Positions 1,084 through 59,872 of a DNA stretch of 64,000 bases are shown in pieces. The DNA comes from Escherichia phage Mangalyan. Location: sequence record OR449013. One strand, 5' to 3'. The translations under genes were made by a program, and so were the position numbers. Below the pieces are notes generated by a model. That model saw nothing but the letters and a program-made list of their open reading frames with translations, did no database searches and was not told where the DNA came from. Within the stretch, counting starts at the first letter, position 1; every line of letters starts with the position of its first letter.

Positions 1084-1902
1084 TTGAGCAAGAAAGAGTC
1101 TAACGACAAGTATTACACAAACCCAGGGTATGCAGAATATCTTGTTGGTAAAGTAAAAGATAAGTATGGGAATTGTGCATACGTTGAGCCTTCTGCTGGA
1201 AGAGGTTCTTTTTCAAAACTATTTTCAGAGATACTGTCGTACGATTTAGTACCAGATCCTGAATTTGAAGGACCAACACCGTGCATTCAGGCAAACTTCT
1301 TGGAGATGCACCCCAAGGCAGATGTCTTCATAGGTAACCCACCATTTGGCAAGAATTCATCTTTAGCTTGCAAATTCTTTAACCATTGTGCATCATTGCT
1401 AGAGCTTGGCGGGGCTATAGCCTTCATCTTGCCACGGACATTTGAAAAAATATTTTTTTCAAACAAACTGGACATGTCTATGCACCTTGTCTACAGCGAA
1501 AGGTGCCCTAAGAACTCGTTTTTACTTAATGGCAAACCTTATGACGTGCCATGTGTTTTCCAAATTTGGGAGAAAAAGGCGTGCAATAGGGATCCTGTAG
1601 AGATTGGAGAGAATAAGTTATTTTCTTTTAGCACACCGGATGACTACGACTTCTGTGTAAGACGTGTTGGGTATAACGCTGGAAAAGTATTGGGTGATGA
1701 TGATCCAAAATCTGAAGAATCTACATATTTCATAAAATCTTTAGTTGACGGTGTTGACAGAGTGTTTGCTGAATGCTATTCTTCTTTTCAAGAAGAAGCA
1801 GGTAAGACTGCTGGAATGAAGAGTATAGGCAAGAAAGAACTACAATACATTTTGGAGACCCGGTATGATCAAAAGCATAGACTTGACCAAAGAACTTGCT
1901 GA
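1084..1902 (+). CDS. N6-adenine DNA methyltransferase-like protein
   Basis: EPSAGRGSF (AdoMet motif I-like) then FIGNPPFG (motif IV NPPF); no in-frame ATG before motif I, so TTG 1084 after GGAGG is assumed; start uncertain (track gives 1054). Confidence 0.5.
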   Translation: MSKKESNDKYYTNPGYAEYLVGKVKDKYGNCAYVEPSAGRGSFSKLFSEILSYDLVPDPEFEGPTPCIQANFLEMHPKADVFIGNPPFGKNSSLACKFFNHCASLLELGGAIAFILPRTFEKIFFSNKLDMSMHLVYSERCPKNSFLLNGKPYDVPCVFQIWEKKACNRDPVEIGENKLFSFSTPDDYDFCVRRVGYNAGKVLGDDDPKSEESTYFIKSLVDGVDRVFAECYSSFQEEAGKTAGMKSIGKKELQYILETRYDQKHRLDQRTC

Positions 1903-1945
1903 TGCAAAAGCTTTTGGTGAGACAGCGGTACAAAGAGGCCAGGCT

Positions 1946-2323
1946 ATGGGACTGGCACTACCTTTCGTCTTAAAAGAGCACTTTACAGATTTTCAACTTA
2001 TCAAGGGTGATAAGGGAATTCTTATCCTGGAGCATAAGTTGAGTAAGAAACGCTATAAAGTTGTTTTTAATTCTAAAGCTCCAACAAAACTGGGATTCAG
2101 AACTTACAATCTTAACCCATCCTACACTAAGGGTGTAGGAAGAGTAGAACAACAGCATTTCAGTGCTAGAGCTTCTTTAGCCCCCTTGATGCTAAATTTT
2201 TCAGGGGTGGCTTTAGGATACCTTGACAAGAAAAGAGTTCTTCATGTCCGTTTCACAGACTTTGTAACGCTTTTAGCTAACAATGAGGTAGATGAAAAGG
2301 GACGTGTAAAAACAAACTTCTAA
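1946..2323 (+). CDS. hypothetical protein
   Basis: ORF track 1865..2323; internal ATG 1946 preferred because of SD AAGAGG 7 nt upstream; no recognisable motif. Confidence 0.35.
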   Translation: MGLALPFVLKEHFTDFQLIKGDKGILILEHKLSKKRYKVVFNSKAPTKLGFRTYNLNPSYTKGVGRVEQQHFSARASLAPLMLNFSGVALGYLDKKRVLHVRFTDFVTLLANNEVDEKGRVKTNF

Positions 2324-2350
2324 TAACGCATAGTATGATTGGAGACCGCA

Positions 2351-2542
2351 ATGACACTAAAGTTAACAGTTCCAGACAGCTTTTCAGAAAACTTTATCCC
2401 AGAAATGATGGATAAGATGCGATCATTGCTTGATCAGATTGAAGAGGCTGTTTGGGAAGACGATGCTGTAGTGGCTAACGAGCTGGTAGATAAGTGTAAA
2501 AGTATTATTGATGCAGTTGAAGAATACCACGGAGGTTTTTGA
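2351..2542 (+). CDS. hypothetical small acidic protein
   Basis: SD GGAGA 5 nt before ATG 2351; stop overlaps next start (TGATG). Confidence 0.4.
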   Translation: MTLKLTVPDSFSENFIPEMMDKMRSLLDQIEEAVWEDDAVVANELVDKCKSIIDAVEEYHGGF

Positions 2543-3156
2543 TGGATATTATTGTTCTTAACGCCCCACCTAGTAGTGGTAAGGATCACATTGCAGATCT
2601 CTTGTTGGAAGCTATTCCTAACTCACACCATCGTGAGGTTAAGGAGATGCTCTTCAGCGTGGCAATTAAGGCAGCTGGTGTAACTCCTCAACTCTGGAAT
2701 GCACTTTATGACCGCCACTACAAAGAAGAGCCTTGCCCTTTCTTAATGATAGACGGTAAGCATGTTTCTCCGCGAGAGTGGATGATCCATTGTAGTGAAA
2801 ATCTGATTAAACCTATCTTTGGTGAAGATGCTTTCGGTAAGGCCGCAGTCACATCCTTGAAGAAAGATTTCCCTAAAGGTAAAGGGGTTGTTGTTTACTC
2901 CGATGGTGGATTCAAAGAGGAGCTGGCATGCCTTAGTGAGTACGCATACAGCACAGGTGGAGATCTGTTGTTGTTCCGTATTCACCGTGTCGGATATGAC
3001 TGGGGAAATGATTCCAGAACCTATCTAAGTCTGGAAAAGAACGGAATAAAAGGGATTGAGTTCGATGTTGTAAACCCTGAAGGTGCACCTTGGGAGTGTG
3101 CATCGGAGATTGTGTGCAAGTATATTGATGCTAAAGAGGCCCAAGAAGAATGTTAA
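2542..3156 (+). CDS. deoxynucleoside monophosphate kinase-like (P-loop) protein
   Basis: SD GGAGG; N-terminal P-loop LNAPPSSGKD resembles the start of phage dNMP kinases. Confidence 0.5.
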   Translation: MDIIVLNAPPSSGKDHIADLLLEAIPNSHHREVKEMLFSVAIKAAGVTPQLWNALYDRHYKEEPCPFLMIDGKHVSPREWMIHCSENLIKPIFGEDAFGKAAVTSLKKDFPKGKGVVVYSDGGFKEELACLSEYAYSTGGDLLLFRIHRVGYDWGNDSRTYLSLEKNGIKGIEFDVVNPEGAPWECASEIVCKYIDAKEAQEEC

Positions 3157-3743
3157 TCGGAATTGATGTAGATTTGACACTGGTAGATTCAGGAACAGCA
3201 TGGTGGGAGTGGTTGGAGCGTTTGTATGGTCCAGCCAGTAAGACAGTCGCTAAACCTTCTAATGGACTGATGTATTACGATCTGTCAAAGTATTGGCCTG
3301 ATCGCCCCAAAGAAAACATCATAGGGCCTTTTGATTTCTGGAGTGACCCATTCCTCTACGACTTTCTTAAGCCTGAAGAGGGGGCTATTGAGGTTATGAA
3401 AGATTTGGTGGCTCGTGGTCACAAGCTTGCATTTATCTCGGTATGCAAGAAAGGTCACCTTGCATCTAAATCAAGGTTCTTAAAGCGTTGGACCAGTGAT
3501 TTTATGGATCTGGACGATCACACCCAGGGTCACGGCTTCTACGCCACACATTTCAAAGGAAATGTGGCTGTAGATGTTATAATTGACGACAGGCATGAAT
3601 ACCTTAACCAATTCGCTTCACGACCTGAAGTTATTAAAATCCTAAAAGATACGCCTTATGAGCAATTCGAGGAGTTAAAGGTCAGTGTTGACTATACCGC
3701 CAATAGCTGGTATAAAATAGGAAAGTTTTTAGAAGGTATTTGA
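3150..3743 (+). CDS. HAD-superfamily 5'-(deoxy)nucleotidase-like protein
   Basis: N-terminal GIDVDLTLVD matches HAD motif I DxDxT; later IIDDRHEY. Confidence 0.45.
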   Translation: MLIGIDVDLTLVDSGTAWWEWLERLYGPASKTVAKPSNGLMYYDLSKYWPDRPKENIIGPFDFWSDPFLYDFLKPEEGAIEVMKDLVARGHKLAFISVCKKGHLASKSRFLKRWTSDFMDLDDHTQGHGFYATHFKGNVAVDVIIDDRHEYLNQFASRPEVIKILKDTPYEQFEELKVSVDYTANSWYKIGKFLEGI

Positions 3744-3744
3744 A

Positions 3745-3945
3745 ATGGGCAGATGTTCTAAAGGTGGCGATCCTGTAGTCAGATACGGTGACTGGCTGGA
3801 GGTATATGATCTGGGAGGTAAGCTAGTGTATGCCTCCAGGATCACCCAAGACATGTGCTCTGATATGTTTAACAGATACCTTGCATTTAAGGCCAACATA
3901 AACCCAGACGAAATTTCCAAAATTAAAACAAGGAGAGCTAAATAA
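3745..3945 (+). CDS. hypothetical protein
   Basis: 66-aa ORF tightly packed between neighbours; no motif. Confidence 0.4.
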   Translation: MGRCSKGGDPVVRYGDWLEVYDLGGKLVYASRITQDMCSDMFNRYLAFKANINPDEISKIKTRRAK

Positions 3946-4928
3946 TGCTAAAACTGTGCACTGCAAAGATCATTGCTGACAGCATTTCCGAGAAAGGTAA
4001 GCGTATCACCACTTTTGAGCTAGAGTATCCTCGAATTATTCACTCAGAGCTTATGACGCACCGAGTGTTCAGCCGAAACGCCATGTCTTCCCGTGCAGTT
4101 CCTGTCGGCAAGATGCTGCAGCAGATTGTGGAGAATCCGGCAATGCCAGTTCGCTTCGGTGTAAATAAGCGAGGTATGGAAGATGGTGGAGAACACGATC
4201 AAAAGATCCGTGTAGAGTACACTGACATGGAGCTAACCCCTGAAGAGTTTTGGAAAGAAGCTGCAAAAAACGCCGCTTGGCATGCAGAGAAGTTCGCCCT
4301 TGCTGGTTACCATAAACAAGTATGTAACCGCTTAGTGGAGCCGTTTCAGCGCATGAAAACAGTTGTAACAAGCACAGAGTGGAATAATTTTTTCCATCTC
4401 CGTTGCTGGCACGATGCGGATCCTACGATTCAGATGTTGGCTAATTGTATGTGGGAAGCTCTTGTGAATAGCACTCCTGAAATCCTTAAACCATGGCAAT
4501 GGCACACTCCATATGTAGAGCACGTTTATTTGGACGGAGAGTTTAACTACGCTGTACGTGACACAGAAGGAAAGCTCTGCATTCTCGATACTAAAGAAGC
4601 TCTGTCTATCAGTGCTAGTTGCTGTGCACAAGTATCTTATCGAAATATTGACAGCACGTTTGAAAAGGCAGACAGTGTGGCTAAAAAATTGATTGGTGGG
4701 GATCGTATCCATGCAAGCCCTTACGAGCACCAGGCAACACCTATGGATCACGATAACGCAATGGAACGTTTAAACTACTACCTGTCTTCATGTGAAATCA
4801 CACAAGACAGCTGTGTTTGGCAGGAAGGTGTAACCCATCAAGACCGTGATGGTAAATTCTGGTCTGCCAACTTTTGTGGGTGGGTTCAGCACAGACAACT
4901 GCTTAATAACCACTTCGTGAAAGGTTAA
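3945..4928 (+). CDS. thyX: FAD-dependent thymidylate synthase ThyX-like protein
   Basis: SD AGGAGAG; ELMTHRVFSRNAMSSR resembles the ThyX RHRxxSxNxxSxRY block; HLRCWHDADPTIQ resembles ThyX LRADSHAQWEIQ; divergent, with a C-terminal extension. Confidence 0.55.
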   Translation: MLKLCTAKIIADSISEKGKRITTFELEYPRIIHSELMTHRVFSRNAMSSRAVPVGKMLQQIVENPAMPVRFGVNKRGMEDGGEHDQKIRVEYTDMELTPEEFWKEAAKNAAWHAEKFALAGYHKQVCNRLVEPFQRMKTVVTSTEWNNFFHLRCWHDADPTIQMLANCMWEALVNSTPEILKPWQWHTPYVEHVYLDGEFNYAVRDTEGKLCILDTKEALSISASCCAQVSYRNIDSTFEKADSVAKKLIGGDRIHASPYEHQATPMDHDNAMERLNYYLSSCEITQDSCVWQEGVTHQDRDGKFWSANFCGWVQHRQLLNNHFVKG

Positions 4929-4929
4929 T

Positions 4930-4957
4930 CCTATCACAGCGATAGGTAACTTTTGTG
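4930..4957 (+). terminator. weak hairpin terminator after thyX-like gene
   Basis: CCTATC-acagc-GATAGG then taacTTTTgtg. Confidence 0.3.
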
Positions 4958-4986
4958 TTGACTAATAGTATCAGATAATCTATAAT
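4958..4986 (+). promoter_or_regulatory. sigma70-like promoter
   Basis: TTGACT, 17-nt spacer, TATAAT. Confidence 0.6.
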
Positions 4987-5014
4987 AATGGCTCACTTTG
5001 TTGGTGAGCCAGAA

Positions 5015-5488
5015 ATGGAGACAGATATGAGTAATGTTATGATTCCTAAAAAGACATTTATTTCAGTTACTTTAGATTTCCTAGCTACCGTCCCTGGGTT
5101 TAACGTTCGCACACGAAACGGTCTCCGAGCTGCACTCTTTGCCGTAGGGTTTGATTTAAAAAGTATTGATGTTCTTCGTGGAAAAAACGTTCGATGCAAA
5201 AATAAGCCAACACATTATCGAAAGGCAGATGTATTTGCTGGTGTTATGCGTGCAGACTTTAGATACCCGCAAATGTATAACGGTGTAGATATTTTAGATG
5301 TGGATAAAGCACCTGGTGAGGCAATGCTTGTTCAAGATCTCCCGTATGATATCCCAGTAGAGGATCGTGTTAATGTAAGAAAGTATACAAAACAATCTGA
5401 AAAGGCTGAAGATATTCATATTGTTGATGAACCTTTCAATTTTGAAGATCTGCATCGCCTGGAAAAATTATTCGGTATTGAAAGCTAA
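5015..5488 (+). CDS. hypothetical protein
   Basis: ORF track start 4988 lies 1 nt after the -10, so a downstream in-frame ATG is preferred (5015 with GGTGAG SD, or 5027 with GGAGA SD). Confidence 0.45.
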   Translation: METDMSNVMIPKKTFISVTLDFLATVPGFNVRTRNGLRAALFAVGFDLKSIDVLRGKNVRCKNKPTHYRKADVFAGVMRADFRYPQMYNGVDILDVDKAPGEAMLVQDLPYDIPVEDRVNVRKYTKQSEKAEDIHIVDEPFNFEDLHRLEKLFGIES

Positions 5489-5498
5489 GGTGGTGAAG

Positions 5499-5729
5499 AT
5501 GAGCCATAACTCCAAGTGGAAGGATCTTGGTTTTGCAAGTCGGGCAGAGTATGTTGGTTGGCTTTGGTTCAACGGCCTGACAAACGATATTAAAATGTAT
5601 GATGATGTTTATTATGACGAGTATACAGGTAAAATTATAAATATCTCTGTAGAAGAGGATACCTTTATCCAGCAAGATACTGATACCTGCCTTGATAAAT
5701 ACGTTAATGAAGTGGAGGAAGCAAATTGA
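5499..5729 (+). CDS. hypothetical protein
   Basis: ATG 5499 preceded by AAGGTGGTG; track ORF 5421..5729 trimmed. Confidence 0.45.
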   Translation: MSHNSKWKDLGFASRAEYVGWLWFNGLTNDIKMYDDVYYDEYTGKIINISVEEDTFIQQDTDTCLDKYVNEVEEAN

Positions 5730-8041
5730 TCACCAAGGTAATTAAAAGCAACGGATGTGAGGTAGCATTCGATCCAGAACGTTTAAATAAGGCAGCTATT
5801 TTCGGTGACGACGGTAACGGCAATTGGTCACATATTGCACTGGATGCATACAAACGACTGTATGATGGATGTACAACCAAAGAAGTTAACCAAGCTATCA
5901 TAGACTCCTGTGTTAGCCGTAAAGACGAAGCACATTCCCGTATGGCTGGTCGTGTTCTTATTGGTCAGATTTATAAAGAGGCTTTTGGAGGGTTTACAAA
6001 GATCCCTTCCTTACCATCATTTTACAATACCATGGTTGAGAAAGGGTATTGGGAGGATATGGGCTATAGCTTTACCGAGCTAAACACTTTAGACGCTGTT
6101 ATTGACCACAGTAAAGATCTCGGTTATGGCTATGCAGTCCTTAAACAGTTTCGCGACAAATACGGGATCAAGGATACTCTTAAAGACACCTTGTTTGAAT
6201 CTCCCCAGATGATGTTTATGGGGATAGCAATGGCTGTCATGAAGAATATGCCGAAAGAACGTCGTATCAACGATGTTGTAAAATTATACACTTATCTGTC
6301 CGACTTAAAGATCAATGCCCCGACACCGTACTTAAACGGGCTGCGCACAGGTAAGACAGGGTATGCATCTTGTTGTGTAATAAAAGCTGACGATACAGCA
6401 AAATCTATTGGTGTGGCACGTGAAGTTGCGTACACAATGACGGTTAACCAAGCAGGTATCGGCTACTATTTATCATCAAGATCTGCAGGCGATGGTGTTC
6501 GTGGTAACACTATTAAACACATGGGTAAGATTCCATATTATCGAGGTATTGATGCTGGGGTTAAGGAGAACAGACAACAATCACGTGGCGGTTCTGCAAC
6601 AGTATCATTTCTTGCACTAGACCCGCAGATTGATGAGCTAATCCGTTTGAGAAACCCTATGACTGTTGCTTCAAAAAGAATCAACACCATGGACTACTCC
6701 ATCGGTATTAATAGGTCGTTTATCAACCGTGTGGCTAAGAATTTGGATTGGATGCTTGTTTCTTATAAGCACGCGCCTCAACTGCATGAGGGTATCTTCA
6801 CCATGTCTATGGAGGAGTTTGATGCAGAGGTTGATCGTATTGCTAAAGATGACAGTATTCCTAAAACATGGATCCGGGCCAGAGATCTTGCTGTTGAACT
6901 GATCACGCAGCGTACTGAGGTGGGAAGGCTGTATGTATACTGGACAGATGAGATGAATAGACATACACCTTTTAAAGATGTGATCTATTCAAGTAACCTG
7001 TGTGCAGAAATAGCCCTCCCGACAAAAGGCTATTCAGATATGCGTAATATCTTCAAGTACGATGCTGATGATGGAGAGGTTGCATTGTGCTTCCTGTCAT
7101 CTCTTGTAGCTGGGAGGGTTACTCCAGAGGAGTATGAGGATGTTGCATACTATACGGTGCTTATGATTGACAATGTTATGGAAATCATGACATATCCGTA
7201 TGAAAATATGGAAAGCACAGTTAAAAAACGCAGATCCATCGGGGTTGGCCTTACCAATGTTGCACATTTTATTGCCAGCCACAAGGTTACTTACGGATCT
7301 CCTGAAAGTAAACAGCTCGTTCACGATCTTGCAGAACTTCACAGCTACAGCTTGCATAAGGCAAGTTTACGGTTGGCAAAAGAGCGTGGTGTCTGCGAGT
7401 GGATGCATAAAACAAAATATCCAGAAGGTTGGTTACCAATCGACACCTATAACAAAGAGGTCGATAGCGTGGTGAAAGATCCTTCTCTTAAACAGGATTG
7501 GGAAGGGTTACGTAAAGAAATCATTGAAAATGGTGGGCTACGTAATAGCGTTCTTGAAGCATATATGCCTAATGAAAGCTCTTCGCTGGCAACAAACACC
7601 ACTAACGGGGTCTATCCTGTCCGTGAGCACATTATCTTTAAAAAGTCGCCACAAGGGCAGGTGCTGTTTATCGTTCCTGACTATGATGAGTTGAAAGAGT
7701 ATTACACTTCGGCTTGGGACGTTGATACTAACGACATGATCGATATGTATGCTGTGATTCAAAAATTCACAGGTCAGGCAATCAGCGCGGATTTGTACAT
7801 AGACTACACCAAGTTGAAAGATGGTAAAATTTCAATGAAGGAGCAGCTAGGGTACCTTATCCGTGCCACTAAATTCGGAATGAAGACATGGTATTATTTA
7901 AACTCTAGGGTTGGTGCTGGCGACTCCTTGGCAGAGGAACTTCATGCCAAGAAACAGGCTGAAGATGAAACCAGAAAGAACTATCCTTTGAATGCAGATA
8001 GTTCAGTTGAAGATCAGTATTGCGAAAGTTGTGCACTATAA
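5726..8041 (+). CDS. nrdA: class I ribonucleotide reductase large subunit
   Basis: 771 aa; N-terminal ATP-cone-like VIKSNGCEVAFDPERLNK; active-site block SSNLCAEIALP; TTG start after GGAGGAAG. Confidence 0.85.
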   Translation: MITKVIKSNGCEVAFDPERLNKAAIFGDDGNGNWSHIALDAYKRLYDGCTTKEVNQAIIDSCVSRKDEAHSRMAGRVLIGQIYKEAFGGFTKIPSLPSFYNTMVEKGYWEDMGYSFTELNTLDAVIDHSKDLGYGYAVLKQFRDKYGIKDTLKDTLFESPQMMFMGIAMAVMKNMPKERRINDVVKLYTYLSDLKINAPTPYLNGLRTGKTGYASCCVIKADDTAKSIGVAREVAYTMTVNQAGIGYYLSSRSAGDGVRGNTIKHMGKIPYYRGIDAGVKENRQQSRGGSATVSFLALDPQIDELIRLRNPMTVASKRINTMDYSIGINRSFINRVAKNLDWMLVSYKHAPQLHEGIFTMSMEEFDAEVDRIAKDDSIPKTWIRARDLAVELITQRTEVGRLYVYWTDEMNRHTPFKDVIYSSNLCAEIALPTKGYSDMRNIFKYDADDGEVALCFLSSLVAGRVTPEEYEDVAYYTVLMIDNVMEIMTYPYENMESTVKKRRSIGVGLTNVAHFIASHKVTYGSPESKQLVHDLAELHSYSLHKASLRLAKERGVCEWMHKTKYPEGWLPIDTYNKEVDSVVKDPSLKQDWEGLRKEIIENGGLRNSVLEAYMPNESSSLATNTTNGVYPVREHIIFKKSPQGQVLFIVPDYDELKEYYTSAWDVDTNDMIDMYAVIQKFTGQAISADLYIDYTKLKDGKISMKEQLGYLIRATKFGMKTWYYLNSRVGAGDSLAEELHAKKQAEDETRKNYPLNADSSVEDQYCESCAL

Positions 8042-8048
8042 TTTTAAA

Positions 8049-8068
8049 GGGGCTTCGGCCCCATTTTA
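8049..8068 (+). terminator. intergenic hairpin between nrdA and nrdB (attenuator or partial terminator)
   Basis: GGGGC-ttcg-GCCCC followed by ATTTTA. Confidence 0.35.
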
Positions 8069-8080
8069 GAGGTTAGAATA

Positions 8081-9169
8081 ATGGCTGTATTTAATGCTGA
8101 GAACACCGCTCATAAAACTGGTGACTATCCGCTGTTTCTAGGACAGCAAATGGGTATGTACGACTCTATCAACAAAAAATATCCACAACTGTTTGAACTA
8201 TACAAAAAACAAAAAGAACAAGACTGGGCAGAGGATGAAGTGGATTTGTCGCAATCTATTTCAGATTTTGTAACATGCTCAAAGTCAACTTATGACGTGA
8301 TGGTGCAGACCTTGATGTGGCAATGGGAGGCTGATAGCGTTGCGGCAAGATCTATCATTTGTCTGTTTTCACCATTTATCACCAATAGTGAGCTTTTCAC
8401 TCTATTGATGAAACAGTCAGAGATTGAAGTTCTTCACGCACTAACTTACTCAGAGATTGTTAGACAATGCCTCCCCAATGCCCGTGAGATTATAGAAGAG
8501 ATTCAGGAAAACCAAAACGTTCTGAGCAGATCCGGCGTTATTGTCAAATACATGCAAGAGCTTGAGGTTATTGGTGCAAAATACCGACTGGATCCTTCTA
8601 GTGTTGAAGAAGATGTTGTGCGGAAATGCATTCTTAGAGCGCTTTTTGCACTTTTAGCTCTGGAAAGTATTGAGTTTATTGCAAGTTTTGCATGCACTTT
8701 CGCAGTAGCTGAGCAGGGTATCTTTGTTCAGGTGGCGCAGCTTGTTCAAAAAATCATGCTTGACGAAATGCTACATTCGAAAGGTGATTTTGCCATCATT
8801 GATATCCTGCTTAATGATCCCGCATGGGAGAAAAGCTTCCTTGAGATAAAAGGGGAGTTAAAAGAGATTCTTGATGAAGTACGAACCAAAGAGTACGGTT
8901 GGAGTGACTATATTTTCAGCGAAGGAAGAGCGATTATAGGTCTTAACTCACCGTTGCTTAAAGAATGGGTTGACTATAACTGCTCACCGATTTATGATTA
9001 CTACGACATCGACAAAGACTTTGTGCCGCCAACAAAGGACCCTCTACCGTTTATGCAGGTGTGGATGAAACCTTCATTGCAACAGACGGCGAACCAAGAA
9101 ATGTCGAACACTGACTACCGCGTCAACACAACTGTTAACGACGCTGAAGAAGAAATTTGGGAGTTTTAA
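8081..9169 (+). CDS. nrdB: class I ribonucleotide reductase small subunit
   Basis: 362 aa immediately downstream of nrdA; ferritin-like E..H pairs (VLHALTYSE, DEMLHSKGD); acidic C-terminal tail. Confidence 0.8.
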   Translation: MAVFNAENTAHKTGDYPLFLGQQMGMYDSINKKYPQLFELYKKQKEQDWAEDEVDLSQSISDFVTCSKSTYDVMVQTLMWQWEADSVAARSIICLFSPFITNSELFTLLMKQSEIEVLHALTYSEIVRQCLPNAREIIEEIQENQNVLSRSGVIVKYMQELEVIGAKYRLDPSSVEEDVVRKCILRALFALLALESIEFIASFACTFAVAEQGIFVQVAQLVQKIMLDEMLHSKGDFAIIDILLNDPAWEKSFLEIKGELKEILDEVRTKEYGWSDYIFSEGRAIIGLNSPLLKEWVDYNCSPIYDYYDIDKDFVPPTKDPLPFMQVWMKPSLQQTANQEMSNTDYRVNTTVNDAEEEIWEF

Positions 9170-9172
9170 TAC

Positions 9173-9451
9173 ATGAGCTGTGAAAAATCTTTTTTCTTTA
9201 TTATTTACGGTAAAGATAACTGCCCACATTGTGTAAGAGCAAAAGAATTTGCAGTCAGTAAGGGTCTGCCTTTTGTATATAAGACACTTGGCGAGGGTTA
9301 CACAAAAGAAGAGCTTATTGAGAAGTGCAGTCCAATCGTACCCAGAACGTTGCCGCAGATCTTCTTAGAAAGTAATCTTGAAAGTGTCCATATAGGCGGT
9401 GCCGACGATTTCATCTCTTTTGTTAAGAATGGTTTTGGAGAGAAAAAGTGA
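9173..9451 (+). CDS. glutaredoxin/thioredoxin-like protein (NrdH/NrdC-like)
   Basis: 92 aa with CPHC redox motif; located between nrdB and nrdD. Confidence 0.6.
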   Translation: MSCEKSFFFIIYGKDNCPHCVRAKEFAVSKGLPFVYKTLGEGYTKEELIEKCSPIVPRTLPQIFLESNLESVHIGGADDFISFVKNGFGEKK

Positions 9452-10308
9452 AAGTTGTAAAACGGGACGGTAGAGAAGAGGTCTATAACGGAATTAAGGT
9501 GATCAAGGCGGCAGAGTCCGCCTTACTTGAGTCTGGACATACTGAAGAAGAAGCTTACCGGATCGCCTGCGCGGTTAATGAAGTTGTTGCTAACACTCTA
9601 CCAACCGACCAGTGCACGATCTCTGTAAAAAATATCCATATCCTTGTTGAAGACGCTCTTATGGATATGGGTTTAAAATGTGCAGCCAGAGAATACATCC
9701 AGTATAGGCAGACAAGAGATAATAATAGAGAGGCAGGTGGAAAACTGCTTGCAGATATTAGTGGCTTCTTGGATCGCACTTGTGATGAATTTACAAAAGA
9801 AAACGCAAATAAGCCTACCAATCATGTACACACTCATCGTGACCTGCTTGCAGGCATCCTTAGCAAACACCTTGCATCAACACAGATCCTGCCAGACCGT
9901 GTCTCAGAAGAGCACAATAGAGGCTTCATCCATGTGCATGATCTTGACTACTTGATCAGTCCGTTAACAAACTGTTGTTTGGTAAATTATCCAGATATGT
10001 TGGAAAACGGATTCAACATTGGTAACGCCCATGTCAGTAAGCCGAAGTCAATAGGGGTTGCAACAACAATCCTTAGCCAAATCTCTAGTGCAGTAGCTAG
10101 TGCTCAATATGGTGGTCAGACTATGAGCCATATTGATCATTATCTGGCACAGTATGCTGAAGCGACCTATGAGAAGAACCTTAAATTTTGCCAGGAACAT
10201 TGGTTGCCAGATGCTGAGACTGTTGCAATGCAAATGACAGATAAAGACGTATTTGACAGCATGCAGACTTTGCTCTATCAAATCAATACGTTAACTTCTG
10301 TCAACGGT
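9448..10308 (+). CDS. nrdD: anaerobic ribonucleotide reductase NrdD, exon 1
   Basis: ATP-cone start MKVVKRDGREEVYNGIKV; frame ends ...LYQINTLTSVNG; last exon base is T, as expected for a group I 5' splice site. Confidence 0.75.
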
Positions 10309-11099
10309 TAACAAACTGGCCGTTGTAAAACTCTCCTAACCTCATAAGAGGGGTCGGTAAATCCGGCTAACGGGGAACGCTAAGGCGAAAGCTATGCCAA
10401 TCCCGTGACTAGTTCTTACAGGAGTTGGAACGGTTGTAACGACTAACGAAAGGCAGAGATGCTTGACAAACATTTCTGAACCAAGTAGTGTAGGGGTTAG
10501 TTGAAATACTAACTTCGAAATGGAGAGGCTCTATGAAAAAGATCATTCTTAATGGTGAAGAATCAAACTATGTGATTGATGAGGTTGGAAACGTATACGG
10601 AAAACGTGGAATGCTACACCCAATATTGTGGGGAGGTTATGGAAAAGGTAAAAAGCATGTTAAACGCCGTTATATGTACTCTTTCAACCACAAAGGTAAA
10701 AAGATTCGAATCCAAACCTCAAGGATTGTTGCCTTGTATTGTTTGCCGGATGTCCCAGAAGACCCTGAAAACTGGGAAGTGAATCATAAAGATGGCAATA
10801 CATTGAATGATCATCCGTCTAACCTAGAGTGGGTTTTGCCGGAAGATAATAAGAGACATGCTTTCCGAACAGGACTTTGTCCAGGTAAGTGCTATAGGAA
10901 AGTGCAGGCATACAAAGGGAAAACCTTGGTGGGTGAATATCCTTCACTCTATGCCTGTGCAAAAGCCTTAAATTTGAACGTAGGTAACGTTCATAGGGCT
11001 ATCGAAGGAAATGCCGAAGGTAAGCATCTCACAATAAAGGGTTATTATCTTATTGAAGTAGAGTAAGAGATAGTCTGGCCCTGTGGAAACACAGGGAGG
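10309..11099 (+). mobile_element. group I intron interrupting nrdD (boundaries +/- a few nt)
   Basis: nrdD reading frame breaks at 10309 and resumes in another frame at ~11100; 5' part 10312-10532 is ORF-free and GC-rich with GNRA-like loops (GCGAAAGC); internal HNH ORF; intron ends in G. Confidence 0.6.
10533..11066 (+). CDS. intron-encoded HNH homing endonuclease
   Basis: 177 aa; HNH block EVNHKDGNTLNDHPSNLEWVLPEDNKRHA; SD GGAGAGG before ATG; lies entirely inside the nrdD interruption. Confidence 0.65.
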   Translation: MKKIILNGEESNYVIDEVGNVYGKRGMLHPILWGGYGKGKKHVKRRYMYSFNHKGKKIRIQTSRIVALYCLPDVPEDPENWEVNHKDGNTLNDHPSNLEWVLPEDNKRHAFRTGLCPGKCYRKVQAYKGKTLVGEYPSLYACAKALNLNVGNVHRAIEGNAEGKHLTIKGYYLIEVE

Positions 11100-12368: not shown

Positions 12369-12432
12369 TACTTGACAAAAGCCACAAGGATGTGGCACCA
12401 TACAGATGTTTAGGGAAGTTAGGAAACAAGAG

Positions 12433-13566: not shown

Positions 13567-13618
13567 TCGTAGAAAGATACACATATCTTAAACATGCTAT
13601 AAACTAAGGAGGTACAGT

Positions 13619-13735
13619 ATGTCTACAGGCATTTATAAAATTTGCAAGTGTGGTTGTCGTTGCAATCTTCGTTGGTGCAAGGCACTGGACGATTTTATTT
13701 GGCATTGTCCTGAATGCGATGCAGAGTACTTATAA
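13619..13735 (+). CDS. small Cys-rich (zinc-ribbon-like) peptide, 38 aa
   Basis: perfect SD AAGGAGG 7 nt before ATG; 8 Cys in CKCGCRC...CPEC; below the track's 60-aa cutoff. Confidence 0.4.
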   Translation: MSTGIYKICKCGCRCNLRWCKALDDFIWHCPECDAEYL

Positions 13736-13886
13736 GCATAAGGGGTCGAAATGCGGAAATCTATCAAGAAAATCAAGATAAAATTGTTAGCACTGAAGCG
13801 TAAGTATAAAAAGTTATACGGCTTCATCAAATGGACTTTTATAAGTTTATCTTGAATAGAAGCACACCACAGAAGAGAGGTTCCTT

Positions 13887-14123
13887 ATGGTAGGTGTCTG
13901 TGTAAAAGCTAACAGATGGTTTACATTCGGCAAGGATTACGAAATTATCTTTCATTCGGACAGAGCCACAACAGTAGAAAGCGATGATGGGTGCTACTGG
14001 TTCGTTAGTTACCAGGGTGATGGGTATTATAGATCTACTGATTCCAGAGGGGAAGAAGCTGTTTTCTTAGATAGAGCTTATTGTGGGCCTGAATATCCCT
14101 ACCTCAAAGAGGGTAAGGAATGA
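13887..14123 (+). CDS. hypothetical protein
   Basis: 78-aa ORF; stop overlaps nrdG start. Confidence 0.45.
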   Translation: MVGVCVKANRWFTFGKDYEIIFHSDRATTVESDDGCYWFVSYQGDGYYRSTDSRGEEAVFLDRAYCGPEYPYLKEGKE

Positions 14124-14593: not shown

Positions 14594-14596
14594 CTG

Positions 14597-14626
14597 TTGA
14601 CAAAGCTTTGTTTAGATAGGTATAAT
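14597..14626 (+). promoter_or_regulatory. sigma70-like promoter
   Basis: TTGACA, 18-nt spacer, TATAAT. Confidence 0.6.
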
Positions 14627-14657
14627 TATCGTAAAATGAAAGCAGAGGAGGTGCCAA

Positions 14658-15118: not shown

Positions 15119-15156
15119 AAGTACTTGGCACATCTCAATCTGAAAGGAGTCCCAAC

Positions 15157-15945: not shown

Positions 15946-15989
15946 CACAGAAGGGTGGTTATTCCACCCTTAGATATCTAAAACAGTTG

Positions 15990-16018: not shown

Positions 16019-16043
16019 TATCGGACAAGGAGAAGGAGATAGT

Positions 16044-17479: not shown

Positions 17480-17500
17480 GCCCTCTTCGGAGGGCTTTTA
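17480..17500 (+). terminator. rho-independent terminator
   Basis: GCCCTC-ttcg-GAGGGC followed by TTTTAT. Confidence 0.6.
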
Positions 17501-17516
17501 TGATCTGGAGATTTGC

Positions 17517-18050
17517 ATGACTTGTGCTAGAAAACCTGATGAACAACGTAACGCCTACGATGAGTATGTGACACCGGAGTGGTGTGCAGAAGGGCTGTAT
17601 GACCTTATTCCGTTCCCAGAAGACTGGACCTACTTAGAGCCTTGCAGGAATAGTGCCTCAGGTGTGTTCTACTCCCGTATGCCGTTAGGATCTGCATGGG
17701 GAGAAATACAAGAAGGTGTTGACTATCTGAATACAGAATACAACCATGTTGACTGTATTATCACCAACCCACCATACAGCCTGGCTCGTGAGTTTGTAGA
17801 CAAGGCGTTGAAAGATGCTGACGTAGTTATTATGCTTTTGCGTCTTAATTTTCTGGAAAGCAAAGCCAGATTTGAATGGTGGCTTGATAATGCACCTACT
17901 ACTGTGATCACAATATCTAAGCGTCCATCATTTCAATCAAACGGCAGAACTGACGGGCAAGCATATGCATATTTTGTGTGGGATAAGAAAAACCGTTTAG
18001 ACTTGCCGCCGTTTATGTGGTTGGCACCCCCAGAGGTAGACCTGAAATGA
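17517..18050 (+). CDS. N6-adenine methyltransferase-like protein (paralog of 1084..1902)
   Basis: IITNPPYS (motif IV); N-terminal YVTPEW parallels YYTNPGY of the other copy. Confidence 0.45.
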   Translation: MTCARKPDEQRNAYDEYVTPEWCAEGLYDLIPFPEDWTYLEPCRNSASGVFYSRMPLGSAWGEIQEGVDYLNTEYNHVDCIITNPPYSLAREFVDKALKDADVVIMLLRLNFLESKARFEWWLDNAPTTVITISKRPSFQSNGRTDGQAYAYFVWDKKNRLDLPPFMWLAPPEVDLK

Positions 18051-19280: not shown

Positions 19281-19805
19281 ATGCTTCTTATTAACTGGGA
19301 AGACCTCTATGGGGACAAAGACCCTGTTGCGTTTGTTGATCGTAGATGGAGATATACTGAAGAACAACTGGCTGCAAAAAATTTAACTGCGAAACGCAGA
19401 AAGATTATCCAGTGCAAGTACAAATACGCACAGTTTGCTGCAAAAGTGTCTCCACAAATCGAGAGCTTTGTACTTAAATTGTATGACGAGTATCTCAAAT
19501 TCAAATTGGATTTTGTGCAGGTATACCGTGCACAGGTACGCCCAGATACCAGCATTTGCAGATGGAAGGTTGTTTGTGACGGTAAAGCTTTGCCGATCAG
19601 CTTGACAATTGAGCAGCGTTGGGGGTATCATGAGTGTGGTCTGTATGAGACTTGGGATGTCATTGTAGATCCTGCTAAGTACCTGAACACAGAGGAGCTG
19701 GAATATATCAATAAGGTTATTCTAGATATGTTTTTCAACTACACCCGTGAAAACTCTGAGAAAGAACGAGATAATTTTCTTGACACCATCAGCAACCATC
19801 TGTAG
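19281..19805 (+). CDS. hypothetical protein
   Basis: SD GGAGGAG 10 nt before ATG 19281. Confidence 0.5.
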   Translation: MLLINWEDLYGDKDPVAFVDRRWRYTEEQLAAKNLTAKRRKIIQCKYKYAQFAAKVSPQIESFVLKLYDEYLKFKLDFVQVYRAQVRPDTSICRWKVVCDGKALPISLTIEQRWGYHECGLYETWDVIVDPAKYLNTEELEYINKVILDMFFNYTRENSEKERDNFLDTISNHL

Positions 19806-56981: not shown

Positions 56982-57039
56982 ATACAGTTCTCCTTAAAGG
57001 GGAGGCGGTTGTACTACCCCTCCCACTCTTGGTTAAACA

Positions 57040-59118
57040 TTAAAAAGGTGTTTCATCGTCCTCAAAACCAGGGACAGGGTCAGAGGATGGATCATCGTAC
57101 TGGAGGTCTTCCTGCGTGTCAACAGGCTTAACAGTAGGAGTTACAACCTTATCAGCCACAACCTTACCCATAGGTGTTTCTACAACTGTATGCTCCTGAT
57201 CCTCAAACATAGCCTGAGGTCTCCAAACAACCTCCCCACCTTCTCCGTCTGTAAACATCTGCATTTCTTTGTCCCAGTACCAATTGCTGGCATCATGGAA
57301 CTTGCCTGTGTGAGGGTCCATAACTAAAGTGTCAGCAATACCTAAAGTTTTTGCTGGACGGTTTTTAAGACCTACCAGACGGACACGTCCACGAGAACGA
57401 TCCACCATTTCTTCGGCCTCGACACCTATGACTACCCAACTCAACTGTTCAAGCCCAGCCGATCCTCGCAAATTCTCTTTTCGCACAGGATACCAGAAAG
57501 GTAACGGGTTACCATCCTTGTCCTTAGGAGGCACAATCTCTATACGCTTGAGGTGAGCGATCACCAAGATAAACACGTTAAACTGCTTACAAAACGCAGC
57601 CAGTTGGGTCATAGCCATGTCCAGTTCTTTTCGCTCATCCTTAACATTAAGCCCTGAAATTACCATGGACAGGTGATCCAGTACAATATAACGACAATGG
57701 TACAGGCAAACCATTTGCTTAAGCTTAGTAATCAACTCGTCCACCGGAATAGATCCGAAATGTTTGAACACTTTGATTTTTCCAGCTTTTGCCCATGATT
57801 GGTGAATCTCTGCGTGTTCTTGATCAGTTAAAAACTGGCTAGGATCTTCAACAAACTCTTTAACATCAAACCCTAACTGGTTTGCATACAAGGAGTTAAT
57901 TGCTTCCTCTGGGTCCTCCTCAAGATGGATCATGCATAGACGATCATCCTCTTCGTAGTCATCGGCCTTCGGACATGTCGGGTCCATTAGGTATCTTGCA
58001 ATACAGTGTTCCAGTTTTTTAGCTACGGTTGTTTTACCGCCACCTGACGGACCTGTAAGCATTACAAGTGTCCCTTTGTGCAAGCCTTTTAGCATTTTTT
58101 GCAGTTTTGGGAACTCTGCGCTGATATCTACCCCGTTGGAAGTCTTTTTCCGCAAAGACTCGATAGAGAAGTCTTCTAAATCCGACACAGCATCAGGCAC
58201 ATATTTAACAGGGTGCCGGAACATGTTGACAATATCTTCCAGCTTTTTAGCCTTCAGCATGTCTCGGATATCTTTTACACCGTCAGGGTCGTTTACTTCA
58301 CCAGGGTATTCTACGTGGTAAACGTTATCGGCCATCAAAAATGCTGCGATATTGTGCGTGGCCTCAACACCTTTAATGACGTGTTTTTGCTTCTCTACCT
58401 CGTTAGCTGCATCGTTATCCATTGCCAGCACAACTGTTCCATAGCTACGGATAAACTTCTCATTGTTTGCAAAAGTATCTACTGCGTTTGCACATCCACA
58501 GTTAATTCCAACAAAAGGCAGGCAGGGTTTTCCTGCCAGATCACCACCATTGATAACTGCGTCGATCCCGTCCTGGACCTCTTTAGCCCACTGCTTCACC
58601 TTTGCCGGGGCTTTAGCGTTGGTGAGAATCCCTTTTACTTGTATCTGATATGCAGCCTGCCATGCTGCAATAACATCCCCTTCTCCCTCACAAACGTTAA
58701 TCTGCTTACGGTTGTTGGAAGATGCACACAGCTTTTGACCAAACATCTGAGAGTTAGCCTTTACGATGCCAACAACGGAGAAATGGCCCCTTTGCTCTTT
58801 AGGAATCGTCCAGTCACGCTTTTTGAAACCGGACAGATTTCCGTAGCGGTCGTAATATGGGAAATATGTTGCAGTGACTGTCACACCGTCTTCTTGGGAC
58901 AATGCTGATCGCACACCAAAATATTGTGCAGCCATCAGACCGATATTTTGTTGTGGGACAGGGACAATTTTAGTATTTTCTAAAACAGTTTCTACAGTTT
59001 CAACTTCTTTTTCATCACGATAGTCTCGTTTCACACTTCCCCCACTCTTATACTTAGTTGCTTTCGGGTTTGGCTCACCGAAACGGTTGTATGCAGATGC
59101 CATAAATTTACTTCCCAT
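57040..59118 (-). CDS. primase-helicase (TOPRIM primase domain + DnaB-like helicase, T7 gp4-like)
   Basis: TOPRIM-like INVCEGEGD and LAMDNDAAN; Walker A LTGPSGGGKTT; 692 aa; SD AAGGAG. Confidence 0.6.
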   Translation of the reverse strand: MGSKFMASAYNRFGEPNPKATKYKSGGSVKRDYRDEKEVETVETVLENTKIVPVPQQNIGLMAAQYFGVRSALSQEDGVTVTATYFPYYDRYGNLSGFKKRDWTIPKEQRGHFSVVGIVKANSQMFGQKLCASSNNRKQINVCEGEGDVIAAWQAAYQIQVKGILTNAKAPAKVKQWAKEVQDGIDAVINGGDLAGKPCLPFVGINCGCANAVDTFANNEKFIRSYGTVVLAMDNDAANEVEKQKHVIKGVEATHNIAAFLMADNVYHVEYPGEVNDPDGVKDIRDMLKAKKLEDIVNMFRHPVKYVPDAVSDLEDFSIESLRKKTSNGVDISAEFPKLQKMLKGLHKGTLVMLTGPSGGGKTTVAKKLEHCIARYLMDPTCPKADDYEEDDRLCMIHLEEDPEEAINSLYANQLGFDVKEFVEDPSQFLTDQEHAEIHQSWAKAGKIKVFKHFGSIPVDELITKLKQMVCLYHCRYIVLDHLSMVISGLNVKDERKELDMAMTQLAAFCKQFNVFILVIAHLKRIEIVPPKDKDGNPLPFWYPVRKENLRGSAGLEQLSWVVIGVEAEEMVDRSRGRVRLVGLKNRPAKTLGIADTLVMDPHTGKFHDASNWYWDKEMQMFTDGEGGEVVWRPQAMFEDQEHTVVETPMGKVVADKVVTPTVKPVDTQEDLQYDDPSSDPVPGFEDDETPF

Positions 59119-59872
59119 TAATTCTGCTCCTTACTACAGGCTCGTTTGCTAAGAATACGGCTTTTGCCCAGCCACGTGGTGTGAGGCTTCGGATCATCTT
59201 CGTTCTTGCACTCTTTCCACCCAGCTTGGCGTGTTGCATGGAATACCCGCTAACCGCGTCAACTATTTGCGGGACAGGTTTTGTGGCCGGGATTATAAAT
59301 CCATTACCTATCCAGCCGCAAGTTATTTTTGGATAGGCATCACGTGGAGCTATAAATTCAGGAAACCATGGGTTTACATCATCTTCCGGTAAATACCCGC
59401 CATAATCCGAAGGGTGAAAACGGTAATCAGGTTTGCGCCACAGTGTGGACATAACACCCACAGGATTCTCTACATGCCACGGGCAATCGTAAATCTCTCC
59501 CAGCTCTTCCGCAACCCGAGCATCCTTTACAGCATTAATTTGGATCATGGGGTCCTTAGCCAGCTTTTTCTTAAAATGTGCAGCACCTGATACCGCTAAA
59601 TGCGTGCACGGAGGAAATGCAAGAATAAAGTCTGGAGCCGGATACATGCAAAAAGTTTCCTGAGGGAACCACGGGTCAATCCAATAGTCCACATAGTGAA
59701 TGTTGGGATGATCGGTGATCACCTCTGCATAACTGCCGTGATCAGCGCCTTCTGCATTAAAGCACAGACACAGGTACCCAGCTTTTGCCCAGTCAATGAC
59801 TGCACCGCCAGATCCGTCAAATAGACTCCACACAACACCTTTGTGGTAGTGTTCTTTATAGATAAATTTCAA
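59108..59872 (-). CDS. DNA (cytosine-5)-methyltransferase-like protein (short form)
   Basis: motif I SLFDGSGG, motif IV FPPCTHLAVSGA, motif VI HVENPVG; TTG 59872 after AGGAGA assumed because track start 59902 falls inside the terminator hairpin. Confidence 0.5.
   Translation of the reverse strand: MKFIYKEHYHKGVVWSLFDGSGGAVIDWAKAGYLCLCFNAEGADHGSYAEVITDHPNIHYVDYWIDPWFPQETFCMYPAPDFILAFPPCTHLAVSGAAHFKKKLAKDPMIQINAVKDARVAEELGEIYDCPWHVENPVGVMSTLWRKPDYRFHPSDYGGYLPEDDVNPWFPEFIAPRDAYPKITCGWIGNGFIIPATKPVPQIVDAVSGYSMQHAKLGGKSARTKMIRSLTPRGWAKAVFLANEPVVRSRINGK

Follow-up and report, generated by a model that had tools for sequence, protein, structure and literature searches.

Methyltransferase genes and their relatives

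The window, by which we mean the whole 64,000-nucleotide stretch of the Escherichia phage Mangalyan genome (OR449013) that was analyzed, raises the question of whether three short methyltransferase-like genes encode active enzymes and which bases they would modify. The first-pass annotation had described two paralogous N6-adenine types (ORF1 and ORF2) and one C5-cytosine type (ORF3), the last with an apparently incomplete target-recognition region. Its placement of the three reading frames was correct, ORF3, for which it named no strand, lying on the minus strand, and the motifs that it quoted translate as claimed (Table 1). These motifs are not chance occurrences, as EPSAG, NPPF, TNPP, PPC, and ENP are invariant in 28 to 32 diverse homologues per protein.

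The phage is an rV5-like Vequintavirus whose DNA is approximately 96.5% identical to that of Escherichia phage WalterGehring (Bas51). The annotation of Bas51 lists the counterparts as two N6-adenine methyltransferases and one Dcm-like C5-cytosine methyltransferase. The division into two adenine-type genes and one cytosine-type gene is supported. The profile matches by which the first-pass annotation had proposed to judge the genes were strong in PHROG for all three, but none of the three reached the cut-off of a curated Pfam or NCBIfam model. ORF1, ORF2, and ORF3 are real, full-length DNA methyltransferase genes that were already annotated in relatives; the finding is correct but ordinary, because close homologues of two of them have been characterized experimentally. 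Each encodes a solitary (orphan) AdoMet-dependent enzyme, and together these would modify the DNA of the phage as it replicates. We consider it likely that this orphan trio acts in protection from restriction, with ORF2 forming m6A at GATC, ORF3 forming 5mC, and ORF1 as the candidate for GTAC.

Table 1. Positions of the methyltransferase genes, their motifs, and the indel junction in the window
Feature	Position	Strand	Basis
ORF1, 272-aa gamma-class-like N6-adenine methyltransferase	1084..1902	+	Orthologue of Bas51 bas51_0200
ORF1 N-terminal DKYYT block (motif X-like)	1105..1119	+	Translation, homologue alignment
ORF1 AdoMet-binding motif I, EPSAGRGSF	1186..1212	+	Translation, homologue alignment
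ORF1 catalytic motif IV, NPPF	1336..1347	+	Translation, homologue alignment
ORF2, 177-aa minimal N6-adenine DNA methyltransferase	17517..18050	+	ATG start; 176/177 residues identical to bas51_0176
ORF2 catalytic motif IV, NPPY	17766..17777	+	Translation, homologue alignment
ORF3, 254-aa compact Dcm-like C5-cytosine DNA methyltransferase	59108..59872	-	Orthologue of Bas51 bas51_0074
ORF3 motif VI, ENP	59462..59470	-	Translation, homologue alignment
ORF3 motif IV, PPC	59606..59614	-	Translation, homologue alignment
ORF3 motif I, FDGSGG (AdoMet loop)	59804..59821	-	Translation, homologue alignment
Empty site of type III Mod-like methyltransferase (PF01555)	61119..61180		ORF list, indel junction

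ORF2 and methylation of GATC

The orthologue of ORF2, bas51_0176, was shown in 2025 to form m6A at GATC and to trigger the retrons Asa1 and Squ1 (PMC12548924). Mutations by which Bas51 escaped these retrons, D69G, D79G, and T83P (PMC12548924), agree in position with the numbering of ORF2 only; the residues of ORF1 do not match. In the T83P mutant, the number of methylated GATC adenines dropped from the 1405 of the wild type to 35 (PMC12548924). By our own count, the Bas51 genome contains 703 GATC sites, equivalent to 1406 adenines, so the wild-type value agrees with complete methylation. ORF2 retains D69, D79, T83, and NPPY, occupies the same genomic position after a ClpP-like protease gene, and differs from bas51_0176 by a single conservative change near the C terminus (V174A), from which no functional difference is expected. 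Judged by the activity of this 99%-identical orthologue, ORF2 is predicted to be a GATC m6A methyltransferase, and it would place the methyl group without a separate recognition domain.

Within the family, which ranges from 165 to 227 aa, T83, directly before NPPY, and N84, P85, and P86 were invariant in 30 homologues. ORF2 matched phrog_799, 'DNA methyltransferase', at 8e-67. Among proteins of solved structure, M.TaqI came closest to its family (E 5e-5). The product, m6A at GATC, is shared by the ORF2 orthologue with the Dam enzymes of E. coli and T4 (alpha class) and with the proteins of PF05869 and TIGR01712; a profile length of 169 shows members of PF05869 to be of comparably small size. 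However, the motif order of ORF2 is of the gamma and not the alpha type. Its scores against the small phage Dam family remained below the cut-offs (19.2 versus 28.1 bits for PF05869 and 16.1 versus 97.05 for TIGR01712), sub-threshold or weak matches to these two models came from 10 of 30 ORF2 homologues, and comparison with the T1-type Dam of phage KarlJaspers revealed no meaningful similarity.

ORF3, a compact C5-cytosine methyltransferase

ORF3 starts with TTG, preceded by AGGAG, and displays the C5 motif order FxGxG, Pro-Cys, and ENV-type Glu as FDGSGG, PPC, and ENP. Among 28 homologues, FDGSGG was partly conserved, with G30 and S31 (264-aa numbering) nearly invariant and the final glycines variable, whereas P97, P98, C99, E145, N146, and P147 were invariant; a further block, RSLTPRG, is invariant or nearly so in the family. 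ORF3 matched phrog_757, 'DNA methyltransferase', at 3.4e-87 over profile positions 3 to 226 of 247. Its AF2 model (pLDDT 85.6, pTM 0.86) has the fold of a C5-methyltransferase catalytic domain: in a Foldseek search of the PDB, ranks 1 to 15 were catalytic domains of DNMT3A and DNMT3B, followed at rank 16 by the prophage CP-933R methyltransferase 3g7u, with E values of the top matches from 3e-6 to 2e-5 and a TM score of about 0.5. The Rossmann fold, FxGxG, the cysteine of PC, and the glutamate of EN(V/P) are common to ORF3, DNMT3A/DNMT3B, and PF00145 enzymes, and motifs I to IV of DNMT3B and M.HaeIII could be aligned with the ORF3 family profile. ORF3 itself did not match PF00145 at E <= 1. Six of the 28 homologues matched the model, and three that were scanned separately exceeded the 22-bit cut-off, over motifs I to IV only.

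Classical bacterial C5 methyltransferases comprise approximately 320 aa or more. Canonical enzymes such as M.HaeIII and E. coli Dcm are longer than ORF3 and contain a large variable recognition domain, which was not found between motifs VIII and IX of ORF3, where only about 45 residues separate the YPK(K/I)T block from LGGKS...RSLTPRG. The target-recognition region is thus much reduced, as the first-pass annotation had noticed, and resembles the reduced region of DNMT3.

The closest characterized relative is the Dcm of Drexlerviridae (phage K42; KarlJaspers bas06_0055), for which 5mC formation and triggering of retron Ec86 have been shown; 5mC was demonstrated by LC-MS on retron msDNA, and a CCWGG context was proposed (bioRxiv 10.1101/2023.08.16.553469). 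A later report on this Dcm trigger is that of Wang et al. (Cell Rep 2024). ORF3 and bas06_0055 are 54% identical over 235 residues (E 2e-86) and have the motifs, a DNMT3A-like predicted fold, and the PHROG family in common. They differ in that ORF3 reaches about 18 residues further at the N terminus, in a divergent loop at 205-222, and in their origin, a siphovirus for K42/KarlJaspers Dcm and a myovirus for ORF3. In the inactive K42 Dcm control, residues C82, E128, K175, and K176 were mutated. Pairwise alignment placed the first three at C99 (C89 counted from the TTG start), E145, and K192 of the 264-aa frame, all conserved, whereas K176, the second substrate-binding lysine, corresponds to Ile193. 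This exchange and the divergent loop imply that the sequence specificity may differ from that of K42 Dcm. By analogy with its active homologue, ORF3 can be assigned as a putative 5mC methyltransferase, probably acting at Dcm-type CCWGG sites. As a DNMT3-like member of a widespread family of short phage Dcm proteins (3549 homologues, typically 225 to 260 aa), it would use the PPC cysteine as the nucleophile.

The lack of a conventional large target-recognition domain in ORF2 and ORF3, together with their failure to reach Pfam cut-offs, could also indicate truncated remnants that serve as regulators or make non-methyl modified bases, as the first-pass annotation had suggested. This reading does not hold up against the invariant catalytic motifs and against lengths that are the norm of the respective families, and it is contradicted by the methyl transfer shown experimentally for the ORF2 orthologue and the ORF3 homologue. 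We regard it as highly improbable.

ORF1 as a remote homologue of ORF2

ORF1, which starts with TTG preceded by a GGAGG ribosome-binding site, and ORF2 both follow the gamma-class motif order, DKYYT, EPSAGRGSF, and NPPF in the former and YVTP, EPCRNSASG, and NPPY in the latter. The cores of these motifs (T12, EPSAG, and GNPPFG in ORF1; TP, EP, and TNPP in ORF2) were invariant or nearly so in the family alignments. For ORF1, the 32 aligned homologues showed D8 and T12 to be invariant and Y11 nearly invariant in the N-terminal block, and E35, P36, S37, A38, G39, G41, and F43 of motif I as well as G84, N85, P86, P87, F88, and G89 around motif IV to be invariant. Profile-profile comparison of the two families (hhalign) yielded a probability of 97.5% and an E value of 7e-12, and ORF1 matched phrog_799 at 2.8e-12 in addition to phrog_5172 (2.5e-128). 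The paralogy proposed earlier therefore stands as true homology. It does not extend to a recent duplication: the two proteins are only about 20% identical and each is closer to proteins of other phages, which marks them as anciently diverged members of a class. On sequence comparison, the kinship of ORF1 with ORF2 is remote and not that of recent paralogues.

Both proteins have a class I Rossmann methyltransferase fold like that of solved gamma-class enzymes and share with the M.TaqI/Eco57I type the succession of a (Y/V)TP block, EPxxGxGxF, and NPP(Y/F). Scores for Pfam Eco57I PF07669 and N6_Mtase PF02384 were nevertheless below the gathering cut-off of 25.3 bits (15.7 for ORF1 and 13.3 for ORF2), and few homologues of either protein matched. 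ORF2, which aligns over its full length with the catalytic half of ORF1, stops about 90 residues past NPPY, and no separate C-terminal target-recognition domain was found. In ORF1 only about 100 further residues follow, a region conserved among the 32 homologues. M.TaqI, in contrast, comprises 421 aa with a separate C-terminal recognition domain. The structure model of ORF1 resembled M.BseCI, CamA, MmeI, and M.TaqI across 226 to 251 of its 272 residues, 226 in the case of M.TaqI, the aligned part being the N-terminal domains of these larger enzymes.

The core fold and the NPPF catalytic motif of METTL5-type proteins are also present in ORF1, so that a METTL5/Erm-like RNA adenine-N6 methyltransferase with host or phage RNA as its substrate has to be considered. 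We judge this unlikely. METTL5, PH1948, and Ta1320 are single-domain housekeeping proteins of about 200 aa without a C-terminal extension, whereas the ORF1 family (769 matches) is patchily spread in phage or mobile contexts, and two of its members have type I RM genes or a further DNA methyltransferase beside them. Moreover, the tie of ORF1 to the proven DNA-enzyme family of ORF2 is much stronger than that to RNA enzymes, its match to phrog_799 likewise speaks for DNA, DNA methyltransferases give the longest alignments with its structure model, and Bas51 displays a DNA activity at GTAC to which no enzyme has been assigned.

GTAC methylation in Bas51

In Bas51, m6A at GTAC was reported for 509 adenines in the wild type and 511 in the T83P mutant of the ORF2 orthologue (PMC12548924). 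According to our own count, 516 GTAC adenines are possible; 99% of those on both strands exceeded the >60% threshold in two independent samples. GTAC is also the second most depleted 4-bp palindrome, with an observed/expected ratio of 0.59 to 0.68. E. coli K-12 is not known to possess a GTAC methyltransferase. On balance, the leading candidate and most likely source of the GTAC m6A found in Bas51 virion DNA is ORF1, which is remotely homologous to ORF2 and extends about 100 residues further at its C terminus.

Nanopore calls can be disturbed by neighboring modifications, and modifications in Bas51 were called with a 6mA model only, which leaves room for a base-caller artefact caused by another GTAC modification, for instance on cytosine. 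Given the near-complete calls on both strands in independent samples, and given that the family of the sole cytosine methyltransferase is linked to CCWGG and not GTAC, an artefact seems very improbable.

A more serious competitor is a Mod-like, beta-class enzyme. Bas51 carries, besides the ORF1 orthologue, the Mod-like gene bas51_0070, which is present at the matching site in most Vequintaviruses (about 88 of about 120 records). No match to it was found by tblastn within the window, and comparison with Bas51 revealed a clean 1.33-kb indel junction instead (Table 1). Though absent here, as the Mod-like gene also is from phage Pr121LW, bas51_0070 could be the GTAC enzyme of Bas51, leaving ORF1 with another specificity or with weak or no activity. 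Approximately 349 m6A sites outside GATC and GTAC remain in the T83P mutant (PMC12548924) and call for an explanation; if the Mod-like enzyme makes GTAC, they might be due to ORF1. However, such sites suit a Mod-like enzyme better than does a fully methylated 4-bp palindrome. Type III Mod-type enzymes usually recognize asymmetric 4- to 6-bp sites and methylate one strand. The Mod-like gene is furthermore accessory, whereas ORF1 is a conserved core gene, found in all Vequintavirus and Phapecoctavirus records retrieved. We therefore consider assignment of GTAC to bas51_0070 doubtful and retain ORF1 as the preferred candidate.

Restriction and retron defense

The modification of the phage genome anticipated by the first-pass annotation is borne out in its nearest relative, as the Bas51 genome is methylated. 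Methylation would shield GATC, GTAC (including GGTACC), and CCWGG from enzymes that cut these sites when unmethylated. The proposed role against restriction is plausible in this form, limited to cognate sites; the BASEL study reported exceptional sensitivity of Vequintavirinae to the RM systems that it tested (PMC8594841), and any anti-restriction benefit is therefore narrow. It comes at a known cost, since such phage methyltransferases are sensed by retron defense systems.

Methyltransferase genes of the window and their annotation in relatives

The first-pass annotation had placed three methyltransferase-like genes in the window, and all three were present at those positions, with the quoted motifs exact on translation: DKYYT, EPSAGRGSF, and NPPF in ORF1 and YVTP and NPPY in ORF2, both of the N6-adenine type, and FDGSGG, PPC, and ENP in the Dcm-like C5-cytosine gene ORF3. 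In alignments of 28 to 32 diverse homologues each, the core motif residues occupied invariant or nearly invariant columns, so the motifs are not chance matches. Pfam and NCBIfam returned only subthreshold matches for the three proteins. Their identity as methyltransferases was borne out by HMM searches of PHROG, where strong matches to families labeled DNA methyltransferase were obtained for ORF1 (phrog_799, 2.8e-12, next to phrog_5172 of unknown function at 2.5e-128), ORF2 (phrog_799, 8e-67), and ORF3 (phrog_757, 3.4e-87). Single-sequence searches of solved structures yielded nothing useful for any of them, and family profiles were therefore needed. A strong GGAG(G) ribosome-binding site precedes all three genes, two of which start with TTG.

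Coordinates of the methyltransferase genes and associated features
Feature	Sequence	Coordinates	Strand	Description
ORF1	window	1084..1902	+	272 aa; TTG start, GGAGG ribosome-binding site upstream
ORF2	window	17517..18050	+	177 aa
ORF3	window	59108..59872	-	254 aa; TTG start, AGGAG ribosome-binding site upstream
Terminator-like element and ribosome-binding site just 5' of ORF1	window	1046..1083	+	GC-rich hairpin and T-run
Terminator-like element and ribosome-binding site just 5' of ORF2	window	17480..17516	+	GC-rich hairpin and T-run
Terminator-like element and ribosome-binding site just 5' of ORF3	window	59873..59915	-	GC-rich hairpin and T-run
Mod-like gene (bas51_0070)	Bas51	64456..65781 (= L004 14456..15781)		PF01555 adenine methyltransferase, type III Mod-like
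Empty site of the Mod-like gene	window	61119..61180		60-nt intergenic gap; clean 1.33-kb indel junction

By megablast, the first 20 kb of the window shares 96.5% identity with Escherichia phage WalterGehring (Bas51), an rV5-like myovirus of the genus Vequintavirus, and more than 100 further Vequintavirus genomes also match. In Bas51, the counterparts of ORF1 and ORF2 (bas51_0200 and bas51_0176) are both annotated as putative N6 adenine methyltransferase and that of ORF3 (bas51_0074) as Dcm-like C5 cytosine methyltransferase; the ORF3 counterpart of phage Pr121LW is labeled DNA cytosine methyltransferase. The three genes are thus already in public annotation. More than 100 Vequintavirus genomes carry them as annotated genes, and experimental characterization exists for two of the three families. 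Little is new for ORF2 and ORF3, since a GATC m6A enzyme and the phage Dcm family have already been defined experimentally; the sole new element is a GTAC methylome that lacks an assigned gene, with ORF1 as its likely source.

ORF2 is a minimal adenine methyltransferase of probable GATC specificity

ORF2 and bas51_0176 are identical at 176 of 177 residues. The engineered substitutions D69G, D79G, and T83P described for Bas51 (PMC12548924) fit D69, D79, and T83 of ORF2, the last of which directly precedes NPPY; ORF1 has Q, A, and I where these changes fall and does not fit. Native nanopore sequencing in the same study showed that Bas51 GATC carries m6A, with 1405 methylated GATC adenines in the wild type as against 35 in the T83P mutant (PMC12548924). 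By our own count, Bas51 contains 703 GATC sites, corresponding to 1406 adenines, so methylation of GATC in the wild type is essentially complete. Expressed alone, the orthologue was toxic, and m6A sites outside GATC and GTAC decreased from 576 in the wild type to 349 in the mutant (PMC12548924). The loss of about 227 such sites would fit some relaxed specificity of the enzyme.

Proteins of the ORF2 family are 165 to 227 aa long, and M.TaqI is the best solved relative of the family profile (E 5e-5). Taken together with the GATC activity of the orthologue, this length range and kinship identify ORF2 as a minimal adenine methyltransferase of the gamma type that is full-length and in all likelihood active, not a truncated remnant. 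Its 177 aa, which had been read as truncation, lie within the family range, and the nearly identical Bas51 enzyme is active. T1-type Dam was considered as a relative and rejected because the likeness is limited to NPPYS.

Downstream of ORF2, at 19281..19805 (+), the window encodes a 174-aa protein that is orthologous, at 93% identity, to bas51_0171, a putative glycosidase of Bas51; no Pfam match was obtained for it. The change R87* in bas51_0171 lets Bas51 escape from retron Asa1, and R87 is kept in the window orthologue.

ORF3 belongs to a compact family of phage C5 methyltransferases

Homologues of ORF3 comprise 3549 proteins with a typical length of 225 to 260 aa. PPC, ENP, RDxYxKxT, and LGGK..TK.IRSLTPRG form invariant or nearly invariant blocks of the family, and FDGSG is largely kept. 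ORF3 itself does not match PF00145, which was matched by 6 of 28 homologues; three homologues exceed its cutoff, over motifs I to IV only. The same motifs were weakly aligned when the family profile was compared with DNMT3B and M.HaeIII. The top Foldseek matches of the AlphaFold2 model of ORF3 (pLDDT, 85.6) were the catalytic domains of DNMT3A/3B and 3g7u, a methyltransferase of prophage CP-933R.

A preprint from 2023 (10.1101/2023.08.16.553469), since cited as Wang et al., Cell Rep 2024, describes a dcm of 711 bp that triggers retron Ec86 and comes from a Drexlerviridae phage resembling KarlJaspers. With this Dcm, 5mC appears on msDNA, CCWGG being the proposed site and C82, E128, K175, and K176 the proposed key residues (10.1101/2023.08.16.553469). 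The KarlJaspers gene bas06_0055 is exactly 711 bp long, and its product is 54% identical to ORF3 over 235 residues (E 2e-86). C82, E128, and K175 are kept in ORF3, whereas K176 is replaced by Ile. On the strength of this identity and the kept residues, sequence comparison places ORF3 in the experimentally validated compact family. The first-pass annotation was right that a full target-recognition domain is missing, a small recognition region being a family trait. Its inference that ORF3 might not be a classical methyltransferase is not supported, given the usual length of the homologues and the 5mC made by the Dcm of the KarlJaspers-like phage.

ORF1 is a candidate for the GTAC methyltransferase

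The 769 homologues of ORF1, about 250 to 290 aa long, come chiefly from metagenomes and phages. D-x-YYT, EPSAG-G-F, and GNPPFG are invariant among them, and the C-terminal region is conserved. Direct BLASTP between ORF1 and ORF2 was insignificant (E 0.02), whereas comparison of the two family profiles gave a probability of 97.5% (E 7e-12), with roughly 20% identity across 142 columns. Judged by their profiles, the two are genuine but ancient homologues. The description of them as paralogues therefore holds as remote homology but not as a recent duplication, which was rejected: homology is visible by profile comparison only, and each has closer phage relatives, the nearest beyond Vequintavirus being 53% identical for ORF1 (Phapecoctavirus) and 60 to 73% identical for ORF2.

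The supplementary data of the Bas51 study list 509 methylated GTAC adenines in the wild type and 511 in the T83P mutant (PMC12548924). We counted 258 GTAC sites (516 adenines) in Bas51, so GTAC is about 99% methylated on both strands without need of the ORF2 orthologue. We know of no GTAC methyltransferase in E. coli K-12, and a phage enzyme is therefore needed. The study assigned no gene to this complete second adenine methylome of virion DNA (PMC12548924).

ORF1, through its orthologue bas51_0200, is by a modest margin of belief our favored candidate. It is a conserved core gene of the TaqI-like type, for which a 4-bp palindrome is a typical target. The competing source is bas51_0070, a Mod-like protein of 441 aa that is present in Bas51, matches PF01555 at 4e-42, and has its closest likeness among the Mod subunits of type III systems. 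Enzymes of this type usually methylate a single strand at asymmetric sites, a habit that would fit the approximately 349 residual m6A sites of Bas51 that are neither GATC nor GTAC. The Mod-like gene is also accessory (about 88 records, against about 120 with ORF1); it occupies the Bas51 site in about 70% of the Vequintavirus records. No tblastn match to it was found in the window, so this phage has three methyltransferases rather than four and naturally lacks the competing enzyme.

It is improbable that ORF1 is instead a METTL5/Erm-like RNA adenine-N6 methyltransferase acting on host rRNA or tRNA or on phage transcripts, with GTAC m6A left to the Mod-like enzyme. If it were, phrog_5172 would represent a phage RNA modification module shared by Vequintavirus, Phapecoctavirus, and jumbo-phage-like contigs. 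Five bacterial or metagenomic loci with ORF1 homologues are phage-like or mobile regions, one adjoining a type I HsdM/HsdS pair and another an Eco57I-type methyltransferase, contexts that fit a solitary DNA methyltransferase somewhat better than a housekeeping RNA enzyme. No conserved restriction enzyme partner was seen at these loci; the downstream genes are mutually unrelated and unannotated, and no specificity can thus be transferred to ORF1 as the candidate GTAC enzyme. Two metagenomic contigs of 144 and 230 kb (L012 and L011) carry ORF1 homologues among many small unannotated ORFs, accompanied by a DnaB with an intein and by IF3- and NusG-like genes; both contigs have the appearance of jumbo phages or of some other large mobile element.

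Literature searches found no report on whether rV5-like DNA resists RsaI or KpnI and, for GTAC methyltransferases in phages, only the Bas51 paper, two other mentions of GTAC being irrelevant. Entry 1EG2, considered as a solved structure of M.RsaI (GTAC), was rejected because it is M.RsrI.

Site content, restriction, and retron triggering

The window contains 359 GATC, 137 GTAC, and 138 CCWGG sites. Among 4-bp palindromes, GTAC ranks second in depletion (observed/expected, 0.68 in the window and 0.59 in Bas51); GATC is not depleted, and CCWGG is depleted in Bas51 (229 sites versus about 328 expected). Depletion of GTAC and CCWGG is compatible with past selection by enzymes cutting these sites. 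The window has seven GGTACC sites, within which adenine methylation blocks KpnI. If the window enzymes act as those of their relatives, ORF2 would produce GATC m6A and ORF3 5mC, while ORF1 may produce GTAC m6A; methylation would then protect from GATC-, GTAC/GGTACC-, and CCWGG-specific restriction. To our knowledge, no restriction-modification system tested in the BASEL study targets these sites. The exceptional sensitivity of Vequintavirinae to the systems tested there (PMC8594841) limits the antirestriction idea but does not contradict it.

Retrons are triggered by both the ORF2 orthologue (PMC12548924) and the ORF3 homologue (10.1101/2023.08.16.553469). ORF2 and ORF3 are unusually small sequence-specific DNA methyltransferases whose families also trigger retron immunity, and the way in which they recognize their sites in the absence of a recognition domain poses a genuine structural question.

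Genome comparison with relatives

Megablast of window positions 1 to 20000 gave two pieces against Bas51 and two to five against other relatives. Within these 20 kb, the offset between the window and Bas51 moves from 500 to 327 bases, which indicates indels. In the Bas51 annotation, the anaerobic NTP reductase, large terminase, and DNA polymerase genes are joined coding sequences split by homing endonuclease insertions (L001 10161..12868, L003 683..3113, and L004 20664..24283 in the Bas51 segments). Between about 20 and 50 matches per search (21, 39, 21, and 52) were records named Campylobacter phage (host, C. jejuni). The best of these (such as MG065659, MG065690, and MG065644) are 96 to 99% identical to E. 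coli Vequintavirus DNA, and the MG0656xx records are unannotated and probably mislabeled or contaminant assemblies.
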